Shown: positions 242 through 62,995 of the stretch, in pieces
How the letters are laid out: each line of letters starts with the position of its first letter
Position numbering within the stretch: the first letter of the stretch is position 1
NCBI GenBank assembly: GCA_964016885.1
Contig: OZ024746.1
Coordinates: forward strand, 78,182,001 to 78,246,000
Direction of reading: 5' to 3'
DNA length: 64,000 nt
Origin: Eledone cirrhosa
Lineage: Eukaryota
Notes under the pieces: model-generated
Database searches by the model: none
What the model saw: only the letters and a program-made list of their open reading frames with translations
Told to the model about the DNA's origin: nothing
Program-made: the position numbers and the translations under genes

Positions 242-3200
242 TTAACCCATTAGAATTTAAACTGGCCATGTCTGGCCAGAATTCTCTCACCTATTTCTGT
301 TGAAACTGGCTATAAATAAGTAACATCAAAATCTCATAGATTCGATATTATGTGAGATAATCATGTAAGATAGAGCCTTTACTGTGAAAATACAATAGTA
401 AATATAGAGTAATGTAAGTGTTACGTGAGATAATCATGTAAGATAGAGCCTTTACTGTGAAAATACAATAGTAAATATAGAGTAATGTAAGTGTTACGTG
501 AGATAATCATGTAAGATAGAGCCTTTACTGTGAAAATACAATAGTAAATATAGAGTAATGTAAGTGTTATGTGAGATAATCATGTAAGATAGAGCCTTTA
601 CTGTGAAAATACAATAGTAAATATAGAGTAATGTAAGTGTTATGTGAGATAATCATGTAAGATAGAGGAGCCTTTACTGTGAAAATACAATAGTAAATAT
701 AGAGTAATGTAAGTGTTATGTGAAATAATCATGTAAGATAGAGGAGCCTTTACTGTGAAAATACAATAGTAAATATAGAGTAATGTAAGTGTTATGTGAG
801 ATAATCATGTAAGATAGAGGAGCCTTTACTGTGAAAATACAATAGTAAATATAGAGTAATGTAAGTGTTATGTGAGATAATCATGTAAGATAGAGCCTTT
901 ACTGTGAAAATACAATAGTAAATATAGAGTAATGTAAGTGTTATGTGAGATAATCATGTAAGATAGAGCCTTTACTGTGAAAATACAATAGTAAATATAG
1001 AGTAATGTAAGTGTTATGTGAGATAATCATGTAAGATAGAGCCTTTACTGTGAAAATACAATAGTAAATATAGAGTAATGTAAGTGTTATGTGAGATAAT
1101 CATGTAAGATAGAGCCTTTACTGTGAAAATACAATAGTAAATATAGAGTAATGTAAGTGTTATGTGAAATAATCATGTAAGATAGAGGAGCCTTTACTGT
1201 GAAAATACAATAGTAAATATAGAGTAATGTAAGTGTTATGTGAGATAATCATGTAAGATAGAGCCTTTACTGTGAAAATACAATAGTAAATATAGAGTAA
1301 TGTAAGTGTTATGTGAGATAATCATGTAAGATAGAGCCTTTACTGTGAAAATACAATAGTAAATATAGAGTAATGTAAGTGTTATGTGAGATAATCATGT
1401 AAGATAGAGCCTTTACTGTGAAAATACAATAGTAAATATAGAGTAATGTAAGTGTTATGTGAGATAATCATGTAAGATAGAGCCTTTACTGTGAAAATAC
1501 AATAGTAAATATAGAGTAATGTAAGTGTTATGTGAGATAATCATGTAAGATAGAGCCTTTACTGTGAAAATACAATAGTAAATATAGAGTAATGTAAGTG
1601 TTATGTGAAATAATCATGTAAGATAGAGGAGCCTTTACTGTGAAAATACAATAGTAAATATAGAGTAATGTAAGTGTTATGTGAGATAATCATGTAAGAT
1701 AGAGCCTTTACTGTGAAAATACAATAGTAAATATAGAGTAATGTAAGTGTTATGTGAGATAATCATGTAAGATAGAGCCTTTACTGTGAAAATACAATAG
1801 TAAATATAGAGTAATGTAAGTGTTATGTGAGATAATCATGTAAGATAGAGCCTTTACTGTGAAAATACAATAGTAAATATAGAGTAATGTAAGTGTTATG
1901 TGAGATAATCATGTAAGATAGAGGAGCCTTTACTGTGAAAATACAATAGTAAATATAGAGTAATGTAAGTGTTATGTGAGATAATCATGTAAGATAGAGC
2001 CTTTACTGTGAAAATACAATAGTAAATATAGAGTAATGTAAGTGTTATGTGAGATAGAGCCTTTACTGTGAAAATACAATAGTAAATATAGAGTAATGTA
2101 AGTGTTATGTGAGATAATCATGTAAGATAGAGCCTTTACTGTGAAAATACAATAGTAAATATAGAGTAATGTAAGTGTTATGTGAGATAATCATGTAAGA
2201 TAGAGCCTTTACTGTGAAAATACAATAGTAAATATAGAGTAATGTAAGTGTTATGTGAGATAATCATGTAAGATAGAGCCTTTACTGTGAAAATACAATA
2301 GTAAATATAGAGTAATGTAAGTGTTATGTGAGATAATCATGTAAGATAGAGCCTTTACTGTGAAAATACAATAGTAAATATAGAGTAATGTAAGTGTTAT
2401 GTGAGATAATCATGTAAGATAGAGCCTTTACTGTGAAAATACAATAGTAAATATAGAGTAATGTAAGTGTTATGTGAGATAATCATGTAAGATAGAGCCT
2501 TTACTGTGAAAATACAATAGTAAATATAGAGTAATGTAAGTGTTATGTGAAATAATCATGTAAGATAGAGGAGCCTTTACTGTGAAAATACAATAGTAAA
2601 TATAGAGTAATGTAAGTGTTATGTGAGATAATCATGTAAGATAGAGCCTTTACTGTGAAAATACAATAGTAAATATAGAGTAATGTAAGTGTTATGTGAG
2701 ATAATCATGTAAGATAGAGCCTTTACTGTGAAAATACAATAGTAAATATAGAGTAATGTAAGTGTTATGTGAGATAATCATGTAAGATAGAGCCTTTACT
2801 GTGAAAATACAATAGTAAATATAGAGTAATGTAAGTGTTATGTGAGATAATCATGTAAGATAGAGCCTTTACTGTGAAAATACAATAGTAAATATAGAGT
2901 AATGTAAGTGTTATGTGAGATAATCATGTAAGATAGAGCCTTTACTGTGAAAATACAATAGTAAATATAGAGTAATGTAAGTGTTATGTGAAATAATCAT
3001 GTAAGATAGAGGAGCCTTTACTGTGAAAATACAATAGTAAATATAGAGTAATGTAAGTGTTATGTGAGATAATCATGTAAGATAGAGCCTTTACTGTGAA
3101 AATACAATAGTAAATATAGAGTAATGTAAGTGTTATGTGAGATAATCATGTAAGATAGAGCCTTTACTGTGAAAATACAATAGTAAATATAGAGTAATGT

Positions 3201-3937
3201 AAGTGTTATGTGAGATAATCATGTAAGATAGAGCCTTTACTGTGAAAATACAATAGTAAATATAGAGTAATGTAAGTGTTATGTGAGATAATCATGTAAG
3301 ATAGAGGAGCCTTTACTGTGAAAATACAATAGTAAATATAGAGTAATGTAAGTGTTATGTGAGATAATCATGTAAGATAGAGCCTTTACTGTGAAAATAC
3401 AATAGTAAATATAGAGTAATGTAAGTGTTATGTGAGATAGAGCCTTTACTGTGAAAATACAATAGTAAATATAGAGTAATGTAAGTGTTATGTGAGATAA
3501 TCATGTAAGATAGAGCCTTTACTGTGAAAATACAATAGTAAATATAGAGTAATGTAAGTGTTATGTGAGATAATCATGTAAGATAGAGCCTTTACTGTGA
3601 AAATACAATAGTAAATATAGAGTAATGTAAGTGTTATGTGAGATAATCATGTAAGATAGAGCCTTTACTGTGAAAATACAATAGTAAATATAGAGTAATG
3701 TAAGTGTTATGTGAGATAATCATGTAAGATAGAGCCTTTACTGTGAAAATACAATAGTAAATATAGAGTAATGTAAGTGTTATGTGAGATAATCATGTAA
3801 GATAGAGCCTTTACTGTGAAAATACAATAGTAAATATAGAGTAATGTAAGTGTTATGTGAGATAATCATGTAAGATAGAGCCTTTACTGTGAAAATACAA
3901 TAGTAAATATAGAGTAATGTAAATGCTAAAGGGTTAA
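242..3937. mobile_element. piggyBac-like non-autonomous MITE, internally expanded by a satellite
   Basis: TTAA (242-245) + CCCATTAGAATTT ... AAATGCTAAAGGG + TTAA (3934-3937): 11/13 TIR match with TTAA target; unexpanded relatives at 5990-6203 and 59755-59950. Confidence 0.8.
348..3922. repeat. 73-bp tandem satellite, about 49 copies
   Basis: Unit GTGAGATAATCATGTAAGATAGAGCCTTTACTGTGAAAATACAATAGTAAATATAGAGTAATGTAAGTGTTAT; 76-bp (+GAG) and 60-bp (13-bp deletion) variants. Confidence 0.97.
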
Positions 3938-8447: not shown

Positions 8448-8863
8448 GGGTGGTGGATTGGCAGAATCGGTAGAGCATTGGACACCATGCTTTGCAACAT
8501 AGAGTTGCGTCCCTTTATGTTCTGAGTTCAAATCCTGCGCCGAGAGTAGCTTTGCCTTTCATCCTTACGGGATCGATAAAATAAAGTACCAGTAACGCAC
8601 TGGCTAATTGCTGGCCTTGTGCCAAAAGTAGAAACAATTATTATTATTATTATTATTATTATTATGGCGGTGGATTGGCAATATCGGTAGAGGGCCGGAC
8701 GCCATGCTTTGATGCATAGAGTTACGGCCCTTGCCATTCTGAGTTCAAATCCCGCCAAGGTTAACTTTGCCTTTCATCCTTACGGGGTCGATACAATAAA
8801 GTACCAGTAATACACTGTGTATGTGCTGGCCTTGTGCCAAAAGTAGAAACAATTATTATTATT
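8448..8863 (+). mobile_element. Two head-to-tail SINE family A copies with (ATT)n tails
   Basis: GG.GGTGGATTGGCA heads at 8448 and 8666; B-box GAGTTCAAATCC; central CCTTTCATCCTTACGGG.TCGATA; tails CTGGCCTTGTGCCAAAAGTAGAAACAATTATT. Confidence 0.9.
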
Positions 8864-9904
8864 CCTCGACAGTGATCAGGCGTGGTCGCCGTTTGCTAGA
8901 CGCGTCTTTCCCCAGGTCGTCTCCTTGACGGAGCTGCAGTCCTGGGTCAAGCGAAGACCGAGAGGGAGCGCTTGGAGACTGGAATGTCTTCAGGCGCTCA
9001 CAGCCCTTGACCAATCGGGCAATGTGATCGGTGGAAACTTCACCTTGGCGTTCTATAGAGGATTAGTGGAGGGGAAGAGCGACAACGTACTTGGGGAAAC
9101 TCTAAGCGTTGACGAAAATCAACTAGCCAATCTCTTCGGAAGAACTTTCGGGCCGGGGCCTATGGACAACTTCCAGAAATCCCTGGCCTGGCAGTGCTAC
9201 CGAGGAGCTTTGCCAGTTCAGGATAAACTCTACAGGCGTGGAGGTGCCGTCAGCCGGGCATGTCCGAGATGTACGCAGGGCGACGAAACCGTCCTGCACG
9301 CACTCATCCAGTGTCCGAGCATTGCTGACTTGTGGGTTTATGTCGAACACCTGCTGTCGCGTGTAGGACGGATCCGGCTATCAGCTGAGTCCATTGTGAG
9401 GATTGCCCCGCCCTCTTCCTTTAGCCGGGAAGGGCAGGCAGTTTTTATCTGTCTGGTAGCCATGGCGAAAGAGATAGTATGGTGGACACGTTTGAAAGGG
9501 CTGAAGACGAGCACTTACCTCTTCGGTGATGCCCTGATTAACTTTTTCAAATTTCATTTGAAAAGGAAAATCAGGGTAGAGAGGGAAGTGTTCTCTTCCC
9601 AGCATTTTGTTGAAAGATGGGTGAGAGAGGCAAGAATGGCCTGTGTCTGTAAATTAAAGGTGGAAAACTGGGAGCGGACACTTGCCCTGGTGGTCAGAGT
9701 CACTGTGGCTTTTAATGGGCTTTCTCCACGAATGTCCCTCGGAAGTCTCCCCCCATATTGGGGAATTTTTCATTGTTATGTTTTTTTGTTACATCCTCTG
9801 TTTTTGTTTTTTACACGCAGAAATACCCATTTGTACCGTCCTGTATTGTCCTGTACTGTCCTTGATGTCTACTTTATGTAAACCCTTGTGGTTAATAAAG
9901 AAAG

Positions 9905-15308: not shown

Positions 15309-15786
15309 AATGTATGTATGTAAGTGTTATTATGTGCATGTATTATTATGTGTATATGTATATATATATATATATATATGTATGTATATATATTATGTGT
15401 ATATGTATATATATATATGTATGTATTTATATATATATATATATATATATGTATTTATATATATATATATGTATTTATATATATATATATATATATAAAA
15501 ACAAATAACGAAACGAAATTAAATTTCGTTTCGCTTCTAACTCACTTTTGTATGACTGACGCTTAAACAATTAAGTTAAAGTGTACATCTACATATGTAT
15601 ACGGAAGTATTAGTATGCATATAAATACACACATGTATACATATGTACATGTACTCAGCTTTTCACTAGACACTTTACAGTGAGTGTCAGCTAGTCTGTA
15701 TGTAACCACACAGACGGACCGGGTTTTAGAGTCATACGGGTTTTCAAGGAAACACATTTCCTCTATTCTCCAGAGGGCCAGACAGG

Positions 15787-15831
15787 AATATTGGACTAGT
15801 TTCGATGTTATTACATCTCATCAGCAATATT
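15787..15831 (-). ncRNA. Type I hammerhead ribozyme (minimal), array copy 1
   Basis: Minus strand reads AAUAUUG CUGAUGA GAUGU aaua ACAUC GAAA CUAG UC CAAUAUU: full core, stems I and II, palindromic stem III ACUAGU, GUC site. Confidence 0.88.
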
Positions 15832-16255
15832 TACCCATCTTCCGGCTTCTCTGGAGAATTGTAAAAGCACATATCGTTATATGCTTTTTCTATGAAAATT
15901 AGTAGTGGGTAGACTAATTTGCATAGAACGTGAGTCATTGTACGCACCGGTTCAGCGGAAACGATAAAAACAAATAACGAAACGAAATTAAATTTCGTTT
16001 CGCTTCTAACTCACTTTTGTATGACTGACGCTTAAACAATTAAGTTAAAGTGTACATCTACATATGTATACGGAAGTATTAGTATGCATATAAATACACA
16101 CATGTATACATATGTACATGTACTCAGCTTTTCACTAGACACTTTACAGTGAGTGTCAGCTAGTCTGTATGTAACCACACAGACGGACCGGGTTTTAGAG
16201 TCATACGGGTTTTCAAGGAAACACATTTCCTCTATTCTCCAGAGGGCCAGACAGG

Positions 16256-16300
16256 AATATTGGACTAGTTTCGATGTTATTACATCTCATCAGCAATATT
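16256..16300 (-). ncRNA. Type I hammerhead ribozyme, array copy 2
   Basis: Identical to 15787-15831 (+469). Confidence 0.88.
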
Positions 16301-16724
16301 TACCCATCTTCCGGCTTCTCTGGAGAATTGTAAAAGCACATATCGTTATATGCTTTTTCTATGAAAATTAGTAGTGGGTAGACTAATTTGCATAGAACGT
16401 GAGTCATTGTACGCACCGGTTCAGCGGAAACGATAAAAACAAATAACGAAACGAAATTAAATTTCGTTTCGCTTCTAACTCACTTTTGTATGACTGACGC
16501 TTAAACAATTAAGTTAAAGTGTACATCTACATATGTATACGGAAGTATTAGTATGCATATAAATACACACATGTATACATATGTACATGTACTCAGCTTT
16601 TCACTAGACACTTTACAGTGAGTGTCAGCTAGTCTGTATGTAACCACACAGACGGACCGGGTTTTAGAGTCATACGGGTTTTCAAGGAAACACATTTCCT
16701 CTATTCTCCAGAGGGCCAGACAGG

Positions 16725-16769
16725 AATATTGGACTAGTTTCGATGTTATTACATCTCATCAGCAATATT
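16725..16769 (-). ncRNA. Type I hammerhead ribozyme, array copy 3
   Basis: Identical to 15787-15831 (+938). Confidence 0.88.
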
Positions 16770-16857
16770 TACCCATCTTCCGGCTTCTCTGGAGAATTGT
16801 AAAAGCACATATCGTTATATGCTTTTTCTATGAAAATTAGTAGCCGGAAGATGGGTA

Positions 16858-16902
16858 AATATTGCTGATGAGATGTAATAACATCGAAACTAGTCCAATA
16901 TT
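16858..16902 (+). ncRNA. Type I hammerhead ribozyme, array copy 4
   Basis: AATATTG CTGATGA (16865-16871) GATGT AATA ACATC GAAA (16886-16889) CTAG TC CAATATT; predicted cleavage after C16895. Confidence 0.9.
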
Positions 16903-17326
16903 CCTGTCTGGCCCTCTGGAGAATAGAGGAAATGTGTTTCCTTGAAAACCCGTATGACTCTAAAACCCGGTCCGTCTGTGTGGTTACATACAGACTAGCT
17001 GACACTCACTGTAAAGTGTCTAGTGAAAAGCTGAGTACATGTACATATGTATACATGTGTGTATTTATATGCATACTAATACTTCCGTATACATATGTAG
17101 ATGTACACTTTAACTTAATTGTTTAAGCGTCAGTCATACAAAAGTGAGTTAGAAGCGAAACGAAATTTAATTTCGTTTCGTTATTTGTTTTTATCGTTTC
17201 CGCTGAACCGGTGCGTACAATGACTCACGTTCTATGCAAATTAGTCTACCCACTACTAATTTTCATAGAAAAAGCATATAACGATATGTGCTTTTACAAT
17301 TCTCCAGAGAAGCCGGAAGATGGGTA

Positions 17327-17371
17327 AATATTGCTGATGAGATGTAATAACATCGAAACTAGTCCAATATT
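17327..17371 (+). ncRNA. Type I hammerhead ribozyme, array copy 5
   Basis: Identical motif, CTGATGA at 17334; cleavage after C17364. Confidence 0.9.
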
Positions 17372-17795
17372 CCTGTCTGGCCCTCTGGAGAATAGAGGAA
17401 ATGTGTTTCCTTGAAAACCCGTATGACTCTAAAACCCGGTCCGTCTGTGTGGTTACATACAGACTAGCTGACACTCACTGTAAAGTGTCTAGTGAAAAGC
17501 TGAGTACATGTACATATGTATACATGTGTGTATTTATATGCATACTAATACTTCCGTATACATATGTAGATGTACACTTTAACTTAATTGTTTAAGCGTC
17601 AGTCATACAAAAGTGAGTTAGAAGCGAAACGAAATTTAATTTCGTTTCGTTATTTGTTTTTATCGTTTCCGCTGAACCGGTGCGTACAATGACTCACGTT
17701 CTATGCAAATTAGTCTACCCACTACTAATTTTCATAGAAAAAGCATATAACGATATGTGCTTTTACAATTCTCCAGAGAAGCCGGAAGATGGGTA

Positions 17796-17840
17796 AATAT
17801 TGCTGATGAGATGTAATAACATCGAAACTAGTCCAATATT
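17796..17840 (+). ncRNA. Type I hammerhead ribozyme, array copy 6
   Basis: Identical motif, CTGATGA at 17803. Confidence 0.9.
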
Positions 17841-18264
17841 CCTGTCTGGCCCTCTGGAGAATAGAGGAAATGTGTTTCCTTGAAAACCCGTATGACTCTA
17901 AAACCCGGTCCGTCTGTGTGGTTACATACAGACTAGCTGACACTCACTGTAAAGTGTCTAGTGAAAAGCTGAGTACATGTACATATGTATACATGTGTGT
18001 ATTTATATGCATACTAATACTTCCTTGTACATATGTAGATGTACACTTTAACTTAATTGTTTAAGCGTCAGTCATACAAAAGTGAGTTAGAAGCGAAACG
18101 AAATTTAATTTCGTTTCGTTATTTGTTTTTATCGTTTCCGCTGAACCGGTGCGTACAATGACTCACGTTCTATGCAAATTAGTCTACCCACTACTAATTT
18201 TCATAGAAAAAGCATATAACGATATGTGCTTTTACAATTCTCCAGAGAAGCCGGAAGATGGGTA

Positions 18265-18309
18265 AATATTGCTGATGAGATGTAATAACATCGAAACTAG
18301 TCCAATATT
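18265..18309 (+). ncRNA. Type I hammerhead ribozyme, array copy 7
   Basis: Identical motif, CTGATGA at 18272. Confidence 0.9.
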
Positions 18310-18733
18310 CCTGTCTGGCCCTCTGGAGAATAGAGGAAATGTGTTTCCTTGAAAACCCGTATGACTCTAAAACCCGGTCCGTCTGTGTGGTTACATACAG
18401 ACTAGCTGACACTCACTGTAAAGTGTCTAGTGAAAAGCTGAGTACATGTACATATGTATACATGTGTGTATTTATATGCATACTAATACTTCCGTATACA
18501 TATGTAGATGTACACTTTAACTTAATTGTTTAAGCGTCAGTCATACAAAAGTGAGTTAGAAGCGAAACGAAATTTAATTTCGTTTCGTTATTTGTTTTTA
18601 TCGTTTCCGCTGAACCGGTGCGTACAATGACTCACGTTCTATGCAAATTAGTCTACCCACTACTAATTTTCATAGAAAAAGCATATAACGATATGTGCTT
18701 TTACAATTCTCCAGAGAAGCCGGAAGATGGGTA

Positions 18734-18778
18734 AATATTGCTGATGAGATGTAATAACATCGAAACTAGTCCAATATT
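18734..18778 (+). ncRNA. Type I hammerhead ribozyme, array copy 8
   Basis: Identical motif, CTGATGA at 18741. Confidence 0.9.
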
Positions 18779-18995
18779 CCTGTCTGGCCCTCTGGAGAAT
18801 AGAGGAAATGTGTTTCCTTGAAAACCCGTATGACTCTAAAACCCGGTCCGTCTGTGTGGTTACATACAGACTAGCTGACACTCACTGTAAAGTGTCTAGT
18901 GAAAAGCTGAGTACATGTACATATGTATACATGTGTGTATTTATATGCATACTAATACTTCCGTATACATATGTAGATGTACACTTTAACTTAAT

Positions 18996-19047
<52 letters not shown>

Positions 19048-19124
19048 CATATATATATATATATAAATACATATATATATATATATAAATACATATATAT
19101 ATATATACATATATATAAATACAT

Positions 19125-19201
<77 letters not shown>

Positions 19202-19281
19202 TGTTTGTGTATATATATATATGTGTGTGTGTATGTATGTATATATAAATATATATTTATGTATATATATATATGTATGTA

Positions 19282-19339
<58 letters not shown>

Positions 19340-19769
19340 TGTGTGTGTGTCTATGTATATATATATACACACACACACATACACACACACACATACACAC
19401 ATACACACACATATATATATATGTATATATACATGTATGTGTGTTTGTTGTGCATATGTTTTCCTCTTTTTATTCATAAACCCTTTCTTTTCTATGTTGA
19501 ACAGTGTGATTACCTTTTCATATTGGCTTTTGTTTTCTAGTCAAGAATTCCTCCTCCTTTCCTTTTCAGCCCTGATTATATCTTTCCACGGCCCCTCCAC
19601 CTCCCCCTCCACCCCACCTTCATCATCAGAGTGAAATATTAATTAGTACCAATCTTAGAAGAACAATAGAACTGCTATAATTCTTTCATATCTCTGTCTG
19701 TCTCCTATTAATTAATCCCGTCAATAACAGCAACAGCAACAGCTTGAAATAATAAGAAATAACTCTCCT

Positions 19770-30036: not shown

Positions 30037-30102
30037 TATTTCATTATACATATTTCAAGGGCCACCAGAGCAAACTATGGTGCGCTTTCATCAGATAAAA
30101 TA
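30037..30102 (-). ncRNA. Type I hammerhead ribozyme (family B), left arm
   Basis: Reverse complement of 30234-30299. Confidence 0.65.
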
Positions 30103-62080: not shown

Positions 62081-62650
62081 AGTGTCAAACTAACCACGGA
62101 GCTCAAGGCAATCCAGCGAAGCTACACCAAGAGGATTGCCACGATGAAGGAGATAAGCTACTGGGAGAGGCTAAAAGAACTGAACCTCTACTCCTTGGAA
62201 CAAAGACGGGAGAGAAATGCAGTGATCTACATGTAGAAAATCCTGGAGGGACTAGCATCAAACTTTGGCATTGGGAGCTGGACCAACCATCAAACAGGAC
62301 GTCACTGTGTGGTGCCAAAGGTCCCGTCTTCCACATCTAGAATAAGGAGCAGATATTGCAATAGGCTGGGATTCAAGGGCCCTCAACTCTTCAACAAGCT
62401 GCCGAGGGATCTGAGAGATCTGCATGGTGTGGAGGTGGATGTCTTCAAGAAACATCTCGACACCTTGTTATCCAGGATCCCGGAGGAGCCCACAGCAAGG
62501 CACGAGGGAAACCTAAGGGCAGTAGCAACAAACTCCCTTGCACCAGTGGCCAACCAATACAGGCTGGGGATAAAATGTGTAGCAACAAGGGCGGTGCCCG
62601 AGCATGGCCTCAGCCGGATGGCTGGAACAGGTAAAAGAGTAAAAGAGAAT
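62081..62650 (+). mobile_element. CR1-clade LINE 3' fragment (ORF2 C-terminus, one stop)
   Basis: ELKAIQRSYTKRIATMKEISYWERLKELNLYSLEQRRERNAVIYM*KILEG...FNKLPRDLR...FKKHLDTLLSRIPEEP...AVATNSL; tail GTAAAAGAGTAAAAGAG. Confidence 0.85.
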
Positions 62651-62665
62651 ATATATATATATATG

Positions 62666-62995
62666 GAGGCACATGGCTTAGTGGTTAGAGCATTGGCCTT
62701 GCAATCGAAAGGTTGTGAGTTCAATTCTCAGACCGGGTGATGTGTTGTTTCCTTGAGCAAGACGCTCTATTTCACATTGCTCCAGTTTACTCAGCTGTAG
62801 AAATGAGATGATAGGGACTGGGGTCCCTATCATTCCACTGCAAAGTGGACGTGGAGGTGCCACGGAAAAAAAGCACCCTGCACTCACTGTAAATGAGGTT
62901 GGTGTTAGGAAGGGCATCCAGCTGTAGAAATCAAGCCAGAATCAGTTCCCGTCCCACCCTTGCAAGCAGGGAAAAAGCGGACGTAAAATGATGAA
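62666..62995 (+). mobile_element. Composite SINE, near-identical to 21487-21826
   Basis: Same head, CORE-like block, perfect hairpin ATGATAGGGAC-TGGG-GTCCCTATCAT (62808-62833) and RTE tail. Confidence 0.85.

Follow-up and report, generated by a model that had tools for sequence, protein, structure and literature searches.

Metazoan non-LTR retrozymes have been described from coral, mussel and axolotl (PMC7229834) and from vertebrates (bioRxiv 10.64898/2026.07.22.740005), the latter treating them as non-autonomous derivatives of Penelope-like elements (PLEs); these and the following sources are cited for their available portions. PLE insertions have a published signature, consisting of an inverted 5'-truncated copy, a tail at one end and a bias towards microsatellites (PMC8557442). 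For Poseidon of Anolis, both strands are nicked and extended in vitro, two internal start sites of reverse transcription define the tail, and the protein is predicted to act as a dimer; the main substrate is uncleaved RNA, and hammerhead activity is not required (PMC11167929). Insertion of animal retrozymes by Penelope from circular RNA has been proposed, not shown (PMC7229834, bioRxiv 10.64898/2026.07.22.740005), and the tandem and inverted structure of PLEs is called unexplained in the PLE and retrozyme literature cited here.

How does the present locus compare? The element in the window, by which we mean the whole 64,000-nt stretch of DNA analysed, is a young copy of a non-coding 469-nt repeat, and the kind of element is already described (PMC7229834; bioRxiv 10.64898/2026.07.22.740005, in the portions available). 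The sequence features by which metazoan non-LTR retrozymes are recognised were found here: tandem units with hammerheads, non-coding, low in GC and self-paired, dispersed with target duplications. We are confident that the repeat represents a new family within the metazoan non-LTR retrozymes, a kind already known, and that genomic evidence points to insertion of Penelope type. No such family appears in titles and abstracts of the octopus hammerhead ribozyme literature; it may nonetheless already stand in a repeat catalogue.

Architecture of the element in the window

Eight identical type I hammerheads are present in the window, borne by a 469-nt repeat unit and having all the stems named in the original prediction. 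That prediction had read them as one array spaced 469 nt apart; instead, there are two opposed arms of 2.9 and 4.6 units, joined 5'-to-5' within (TA)n, with three hammerheads on the minus strand (15495-16843) and five on the plus strand (16842-18996). Only two substitutions, at 18025 and 18027, occur across the 3.5 kb of both arms. Positions within the unit are given as phases, phase 1 being window position 16842 and the predicted cut falling after phase 54.

15353..15497, no strand: left (TA)n target tract
15495..16843, minus strand: left arm, 2.88 units, 5'-truncated at phase 412 and ending at phase 353 (3' site B), matching the unit without a mismatch
15495..15568, minus strand: "tail" of ~74 nt, spanning from 3' site A to 3' site B and found on just one of the arms, at its outer end
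16725..16769, repeated at 16256-16300 and 15787-15831, minus strand: type I hammerhead
After C16732, C16263 and C15794, minus strand: predicted cuts
16842..16843, no strand: 5'-to-5' arm junction, 2-nt microhomology
16842..18996, plus strand: right arm, 4.6 units, with its 5' end at phase 1 and its outer end at phase 279 (3' site A), 2 mismatches (18025, 18027)
16858..16902, repeated at 17327-17371, 17796-17840, 18265-18309 and 18734-18778, plus strand: type I hammerhead
After C16895, C17364, C17833, C18302 and C18771, plus strand: predicted cuts
16896..17364, plus strand: predicted RNA monomer from one cut to the next, 469 nt long, 37% GC and highly self-paired by folding
18996..19367, no strand: right (TA)n target tract

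The window element lacks an RT or GIY-YIG ORF, and no LTR-like layout was seen in it. The earlier view that the units encode no credible protein held up: neither of the two sister monomers compared, each 88% identical, keeps the single 64-aa ORF of the unit. Interruptions of the (TA)n flanks (15353-15497 and 18996-19200) are mirror images, an 8-mer occurring three times on the left and its reverse complement four times on the right, unlike the flanks at loci L031, L037, L044 and L199, which show direct similarity.

The window also holds another type I hammerhead family, unrelated to the first, whose helix III is an AT palindrome (predicted cuts at 30045 (-), 30291 (+), 38237 (-), 41862 (+) and 61717 (-)); one pair is inverted, and the family is present in L109 and L110 too. 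A third hammerhead-like motif was seen in L101, L104, L108 and L110, with an inverted pair 12 nt apart in L108. A 73-bp satellite whose copies match at 95-96% occupies 348-3922, and two plus-strand open frames of 344 aa (8847-9878) and 167 aa (62237-62737) resemble LINE fragments.

The hammerhead motif is not a chance occurrence, because its exact 43-nt form occurs 920 times in the genome searched (a 3.0-Gb animal assembly) against 0 for a reversed-pattern control, Rfam model HH9 matches it with E=1.1e-6, and compensatory changes are found in six of 16 stem pairs. Both the genome search for copies and the scan with hammerhead models proposed as checks gave matches, although HH9 fell below the gathering score, at which Rfam has 0 matches in the window. 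Across 15 copies, which are mutually related sequences and also the source of the compensatory changes, 91% of stem cells pair; the core is invariant in most sisters. With a stem I of 7 bp, a stem II of 5 bp and a palindromic helix III, the architecture is what PMC4209133, in its available portion, calls "canonical" metazoan type I. The min-HHR of PLEs as given there lacks helix III and has a long helix II and a short helix I, a form that the unit does not have. The cut-to-cut monomer (G+C 173/469) folds at -163.8 kcal/mol (z=-12.75), a stability reached by 0 of 100 shuffles, and its minimum-energy structure contains the formed hammerhead. For the dimer, the ensemble gives the hammerhead stems a probability of ~0.2 and the intermolecular helix III 0.01, in a model that handles such a fold poorly. 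We regard the hammerheads of the unit as a predicted self-cutting motif.

Does the unit bring a promoter of its own? A candidate box, whose core we take to be the octamer, recurs in both arms.

17230..17244, repeated from 17699, 18168 and 18637, plus strand: U6-promoter-like box (octamer core; phase 389-403), by sequence match
16383-16397 and 15914-15928, minus strand: left-arm repeats of the box

This box and the -81 region of a U6 gene of this genome share 15 nt without a difference, a match equalled by 2 of 2000 shuffles in an exact-word test that was picked after the match had been seen. Similar boxes lie at -76 to -78 in three of six distinct U6 upstream regions; the three U2 upstream regions compared have none. 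All seven representative monomers retain it, followed after 42-43 nt (43 in the window, from the octamer start) by a TATA-like motif, versus 46-48 nt in U6. Generic local alignments of the unit to snRNA upstream regions were mostly not significant; only the exact-word test was. Transcription is predicted from these motifs to start near phase 466-1, ~55 nt ahead of the cut. The unit contains T runs of 4-8, which would hinder read-through by Pol III. The U2 genes, in the upstream regions of L243-L245, show a TATA-like run near -30 without a U6-type box.

Insertion anatomy across the genome

Dispersed copies of the 469-nt family are 98-100% identical. Exact junctions of site B with (TA) number 1,701, common to this family and a 466-nt sister, and a relaxed hammerhead pattern, covering sisters of 432-538 nt, gives 37,349 matches; the reversed-pattern control is 0 in both cases. 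By inspection, sisters of 432-511 nt end at positions homologous to A and B. For a quantitative account, 63 loci were analysed, made up of the 39 best-scoring genome matches and 24 taken in order along contig 1. L207 duplicates L206 and was excluded; the variant counts omit the diverged arm of L031, and the end pairing omits an internal piece of L049, 90 nt long.

Of the 107 arm 3' ends, 53 fall at phase 276-285 (A), 50 at phase 351-358 (B) and four elsewhere; A and B thus lie ~70 nt apart (tail 69-74 nt), and TA-rich DNA adjoins 92 of the 103 A or B ends. Two arms are present at 44 of the 63 loci and are joined 5'-to-5' at every one of the 44. Their ends pair as A+B at 39 loci, as B+B at one and as B with another position at four, so that A+B holds at 39 of 40 informative two-armed loci (39 vs 1, p=7e-11). 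Target duplications of ~7-16 nt were seen at L205, L215, L217 and L219 (4/43 two-armed loci), most others being uninformative (TA)n. The sole B+B case, L031 (1154-3775), is a composite in which one arm belongs to a diverged sister (92.6%) and the other to the young family.

The same anatomy was found in a very young autonomous Penelope-like family with many open frames of 900-905 aa and a period of 3127 nt (L180 1019-3718 and 4146-6845; G000:C2 near 200.83 Mb). Pfam identifies RT and GIY-YIG in its copy L109. The two fixed ends of this family lie in (TA)n at a distance of 40 nt. Wherever both arms extend to a site (15 of 15 loci), one of each end is present; 10 of the 15 control loci were chosen as opposite-strand pairs. 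It also makes near-identical tandems of 3127-nt units, and two ends recur in three further PLE families of the genome. The L180 family bears a degenerate hammerhead-like core.

Insertion of the 469-nt family by PLE machinery is very likely, because its anatomy matches that of the autonomous family, the published PLE signature and the in vitro behaviour of Poseidon. An autonomous Penelope-like element would supply the RT-endonuclease in trans, and we hold such Penelope-type mobilisation with high confidence. The original prediction of a recently active non-autonomous retroelement copied by a Penelope RT in trans is supported by the 98-100% identity of dispersed copies, the pair of fixed 3' ends, the insertion into (TA)n, the opposed arms, the target duplications and the matching family with intact RT and GIY-YIG. 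The inversion and the fixed ends, neither of them noticed in that prediction, bear most of the evidence.

Which PLE is the partner? Candidates were 150 scored out of 10,595 in a GIY-YIG search and 150 scored out of 17,566 in an RT search. Neither blastn nor a profile found a terminus homologous to the 469-nt unit in the 98 PLE-bearing loci scanned, a set that leaves most PLE families unsampled, and no autonomous Penelope sharing the motif was found among them. Among the profile matches listed in these loci, the strongest are retrozyme insertions and the others TA-rich noise. Family F099, with ends 68 nt apart, may be a weak lead: its tail weakly matches the sisters of 432 nt (3 of 300 shuffles) and 511 nt (7 of 300), among 15 comparisons made, and does not match the window-type unit (129 of 300 shuffles). 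An apparent tail match of F114 to the unit was dropped, as the reference included flanking microsatellite.

The template and the proposed cycle

Which form of the RNA is copied? A circular template is plausible, and the sequence patterns lean towards it. Several features fit a template without ends. The 5' ends of the 107 arms are uniform along the unit (KS p=0.86), one of them lying at phase 50-60, around the cut site, against 2.5 expected; the 287 cut-site junctions spanned by arms contain no indels; and private variants are fixed in both arms. Variants confined to one locus occupy every covered unit of both arms at L047 (11/11), L067 (5/5), L203 (4/4 and 3/3) and L219 (4/4), and were seen at none of the rest of the 63 loci, as expected if a single monomer fed both arms. 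Against the circle count the tandems of the autonomous family and the Poseidon results, in which uncleaved RNA is the main substrate and hammerhead activity is dispensable in vitro (PMC11167929, available portion). In Xenopus, moreover, dimers cleaved in only 1/9 (bioRxiv 2026.07.22.740005, available portion).

The strongest competitor keeps the same Penelope-type insertion and takes as template a linear read-through transcript that comes from an existing array and was left uncut; the hammerhead would be an inherited passenger or act later. Arrays of 30-50 units exist as possible sources, and seamless cut-site junctions fit this account equally. Some variants are common to both arms in only some units at L067, L062 and L031; partial sharing, seen between the L067 arms, also favours the uncut transcript, and conversion between arms could therefore mimic a single template. 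On the other side, 5' ends are not in excess at the predicted transcription start (7/107 at phase 458-10, ~5 expected), private variants fixed in all units of both arms require a monomer bottleneck or conversion, and the hammerhead is retained with compensatory changes. We consider this a serious alternative, though less likely than the circle.

The unit might instead be the mere pseudo-LTR of an autonomous Penelope element, surviving as ORF-less fragments. In Xenopus, 21/57 families match PLE termini, and 24 families match 22 elements of which 21 are PLEs (bioRxiv 2026.07.22.740005, available portion); here, only 98 loci of >10,000 PLE candidates were examined. Perfect head-to-tail units without an ORF between them at 63/63 loci, the lack of homology between the unit and the termini of the sampled PLE families, and the promoter-like box within the unit make this improbable. 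Equally poor is the prospect that cut linear monomers were reverse-transcribed and joined by template jumping. Every unit has a hammerhead and would yield such monomers, yet the 5' ends leave the cut site untouched but for the one case above, its junctions are free of indels, and unit-private changes at the 63 loci carry no A>G excess as a scar of RNA editing (23 A>G vs 19 T>C). Of the variants present in more than one unit, 12 are A>G vs 3 T>C, though these are not independent, and a 30-unit sister arm has no editing scars. For the window subfamily, cut linear monomers are disfavoured as template. Ordinary satellite DNA or an assembly fold-back artefact, suggested by the near-perfect inverted repeat and by DNA-level expansion of long arrays, is very hard to credit against 44 two-armed loci with differing junctions, asymmetric fixed ends, target duplications and the same anatomy mirrored in protein-coding PLE copies.

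Unit-private substitutions at the 63 loci are asymmetric on the sense strand, with G>A 42 vs C>T 26 and G>T 22 vs C>A 9, an excess of G>A and G>T that could reflect RT errors. Arms of 49.5, 30 and 14.7 units carry variants that recur with period 2-3; these long arrays are therefore not single RT runs and point to later duplication at the DNA level. One such locus of the same family (L223-L225, G000:C1:127664426-127688965) combines a 2.8-unit arm with the 49.5-unit (23 kb) arm, and its outer ends are still B and A.

Returning to the circular template, we envisage a cycle of five steps. First, the unit would be transcribed, probably from its own U6-like box, with read-through into the following units. 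Second, paired hammerheads are predicted to cut the multimer, and a host ligase would likely close the 469-nt circle. Third, as the ends suggest, a Penelope protein that probably acts as a dimer would make staggered nicks in AT-rich DNA, and reverse transcription would begin internally in the RNA, one nick using site A and the other site B. Fourth, both cDNAs would traverse several units, halt at random points and be joined through microhomology. Fifth, the variant periodicity suggests that the longest arrays may grow later by DNA-level duplication. Taken whole, the scheme would have a circular ribozyme RNA, self-transcribing and equipped with a captured promoter of U6 type, copied in rolling-circle fashion by a dimer of Penelope RT. 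The two subunits would each begin at a different site on this RNA, one from either nick of a single break. The scheme is tentative, and we would give it somewhat less than an even chance. If it is true, the 39:1 end pairing would report an asymmetric dimer directly from the genome, and would account for the inverted arm and tail of all EN+ Penelope elements.

Comparison with known systems

The family offers countable evidence on these questions, namely two fixed start sites, one per arm in 39/40 loci, and 5' ends without a trace of the cut site. It also provides a short, defined RNA for testing dimer priming and rolling-circle copying, within a wider superfamily of ~37,000 hammerhead copies in this genome.

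The comparisons below refer to the available portions of the sources. Like the metazoan non-LTR retrozymes of PMC7229834, the element consists of tandem, non-coding, low-GC units with one type I hammerhead each and a short palindromic helix III; a self-paired monomer, target duplications >4 bp, coexisting PLEs and proposed PLE mobilisation are shared as well. Its unit of 469 nt exceeds the 170-400 nt of retrozymes in PMC7229834 and lies inside the 51-972 range of bioRxiv 10.64898/2026.07.22.740005. Opposed arms, two fixed 3' ends, strict A/B pairing and 5' ends without a cut-site signal find no description in the available portions of either source, and the word "inverted" does not occur in PMC7229834. 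Some published retrozyme families have homology to PLE pLTRs (bioRxiv 10.64898/2026.07.22.740005), whereas none was found here among the 98 PLE-bearing loci. Other marks of the group are self-cleavage that is stronger in the dimer and the lack of a primer-binding site and a polypurine tract. Expression and circles have been shown for published retrozymes (PMC7229834, bioRxiv 10.64898/2026.07.22.740005), whereas for the present element they are predictions.

With EN+ PLEs (PMC8557442, PMC11167929) the element shares the inverted 5'-truncated arm, a tail at one end, two internal starts, AT-rich targets and a hammerhead upstream of the starts. It differs from them in having no RT/GIY-YIG ORF, a tail of 69-74 nt versus their 30-40, and a canonical hammerhead where theirs is minimal. 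Chlamys elements of the MRC1 type (PMC8557442) are likewise non-autonomous, PLE-dependent in their case, and form multicopy head-to-tail insertions. They resemble their partners at the 3' end, a likeness not found here, and N-terminal-EN PLEs are without canonical hammerheads (PMC8557442), unlike our element. Finally, newt satellite 2 (Coats et al. 1994, cited in PMC2220036) is also a hammerhead repeat with an internal promoter of snRNA type; its promoter is reported to be a tested Pol II promoter, whereas the box predicted here resembles the upstream region of U6.
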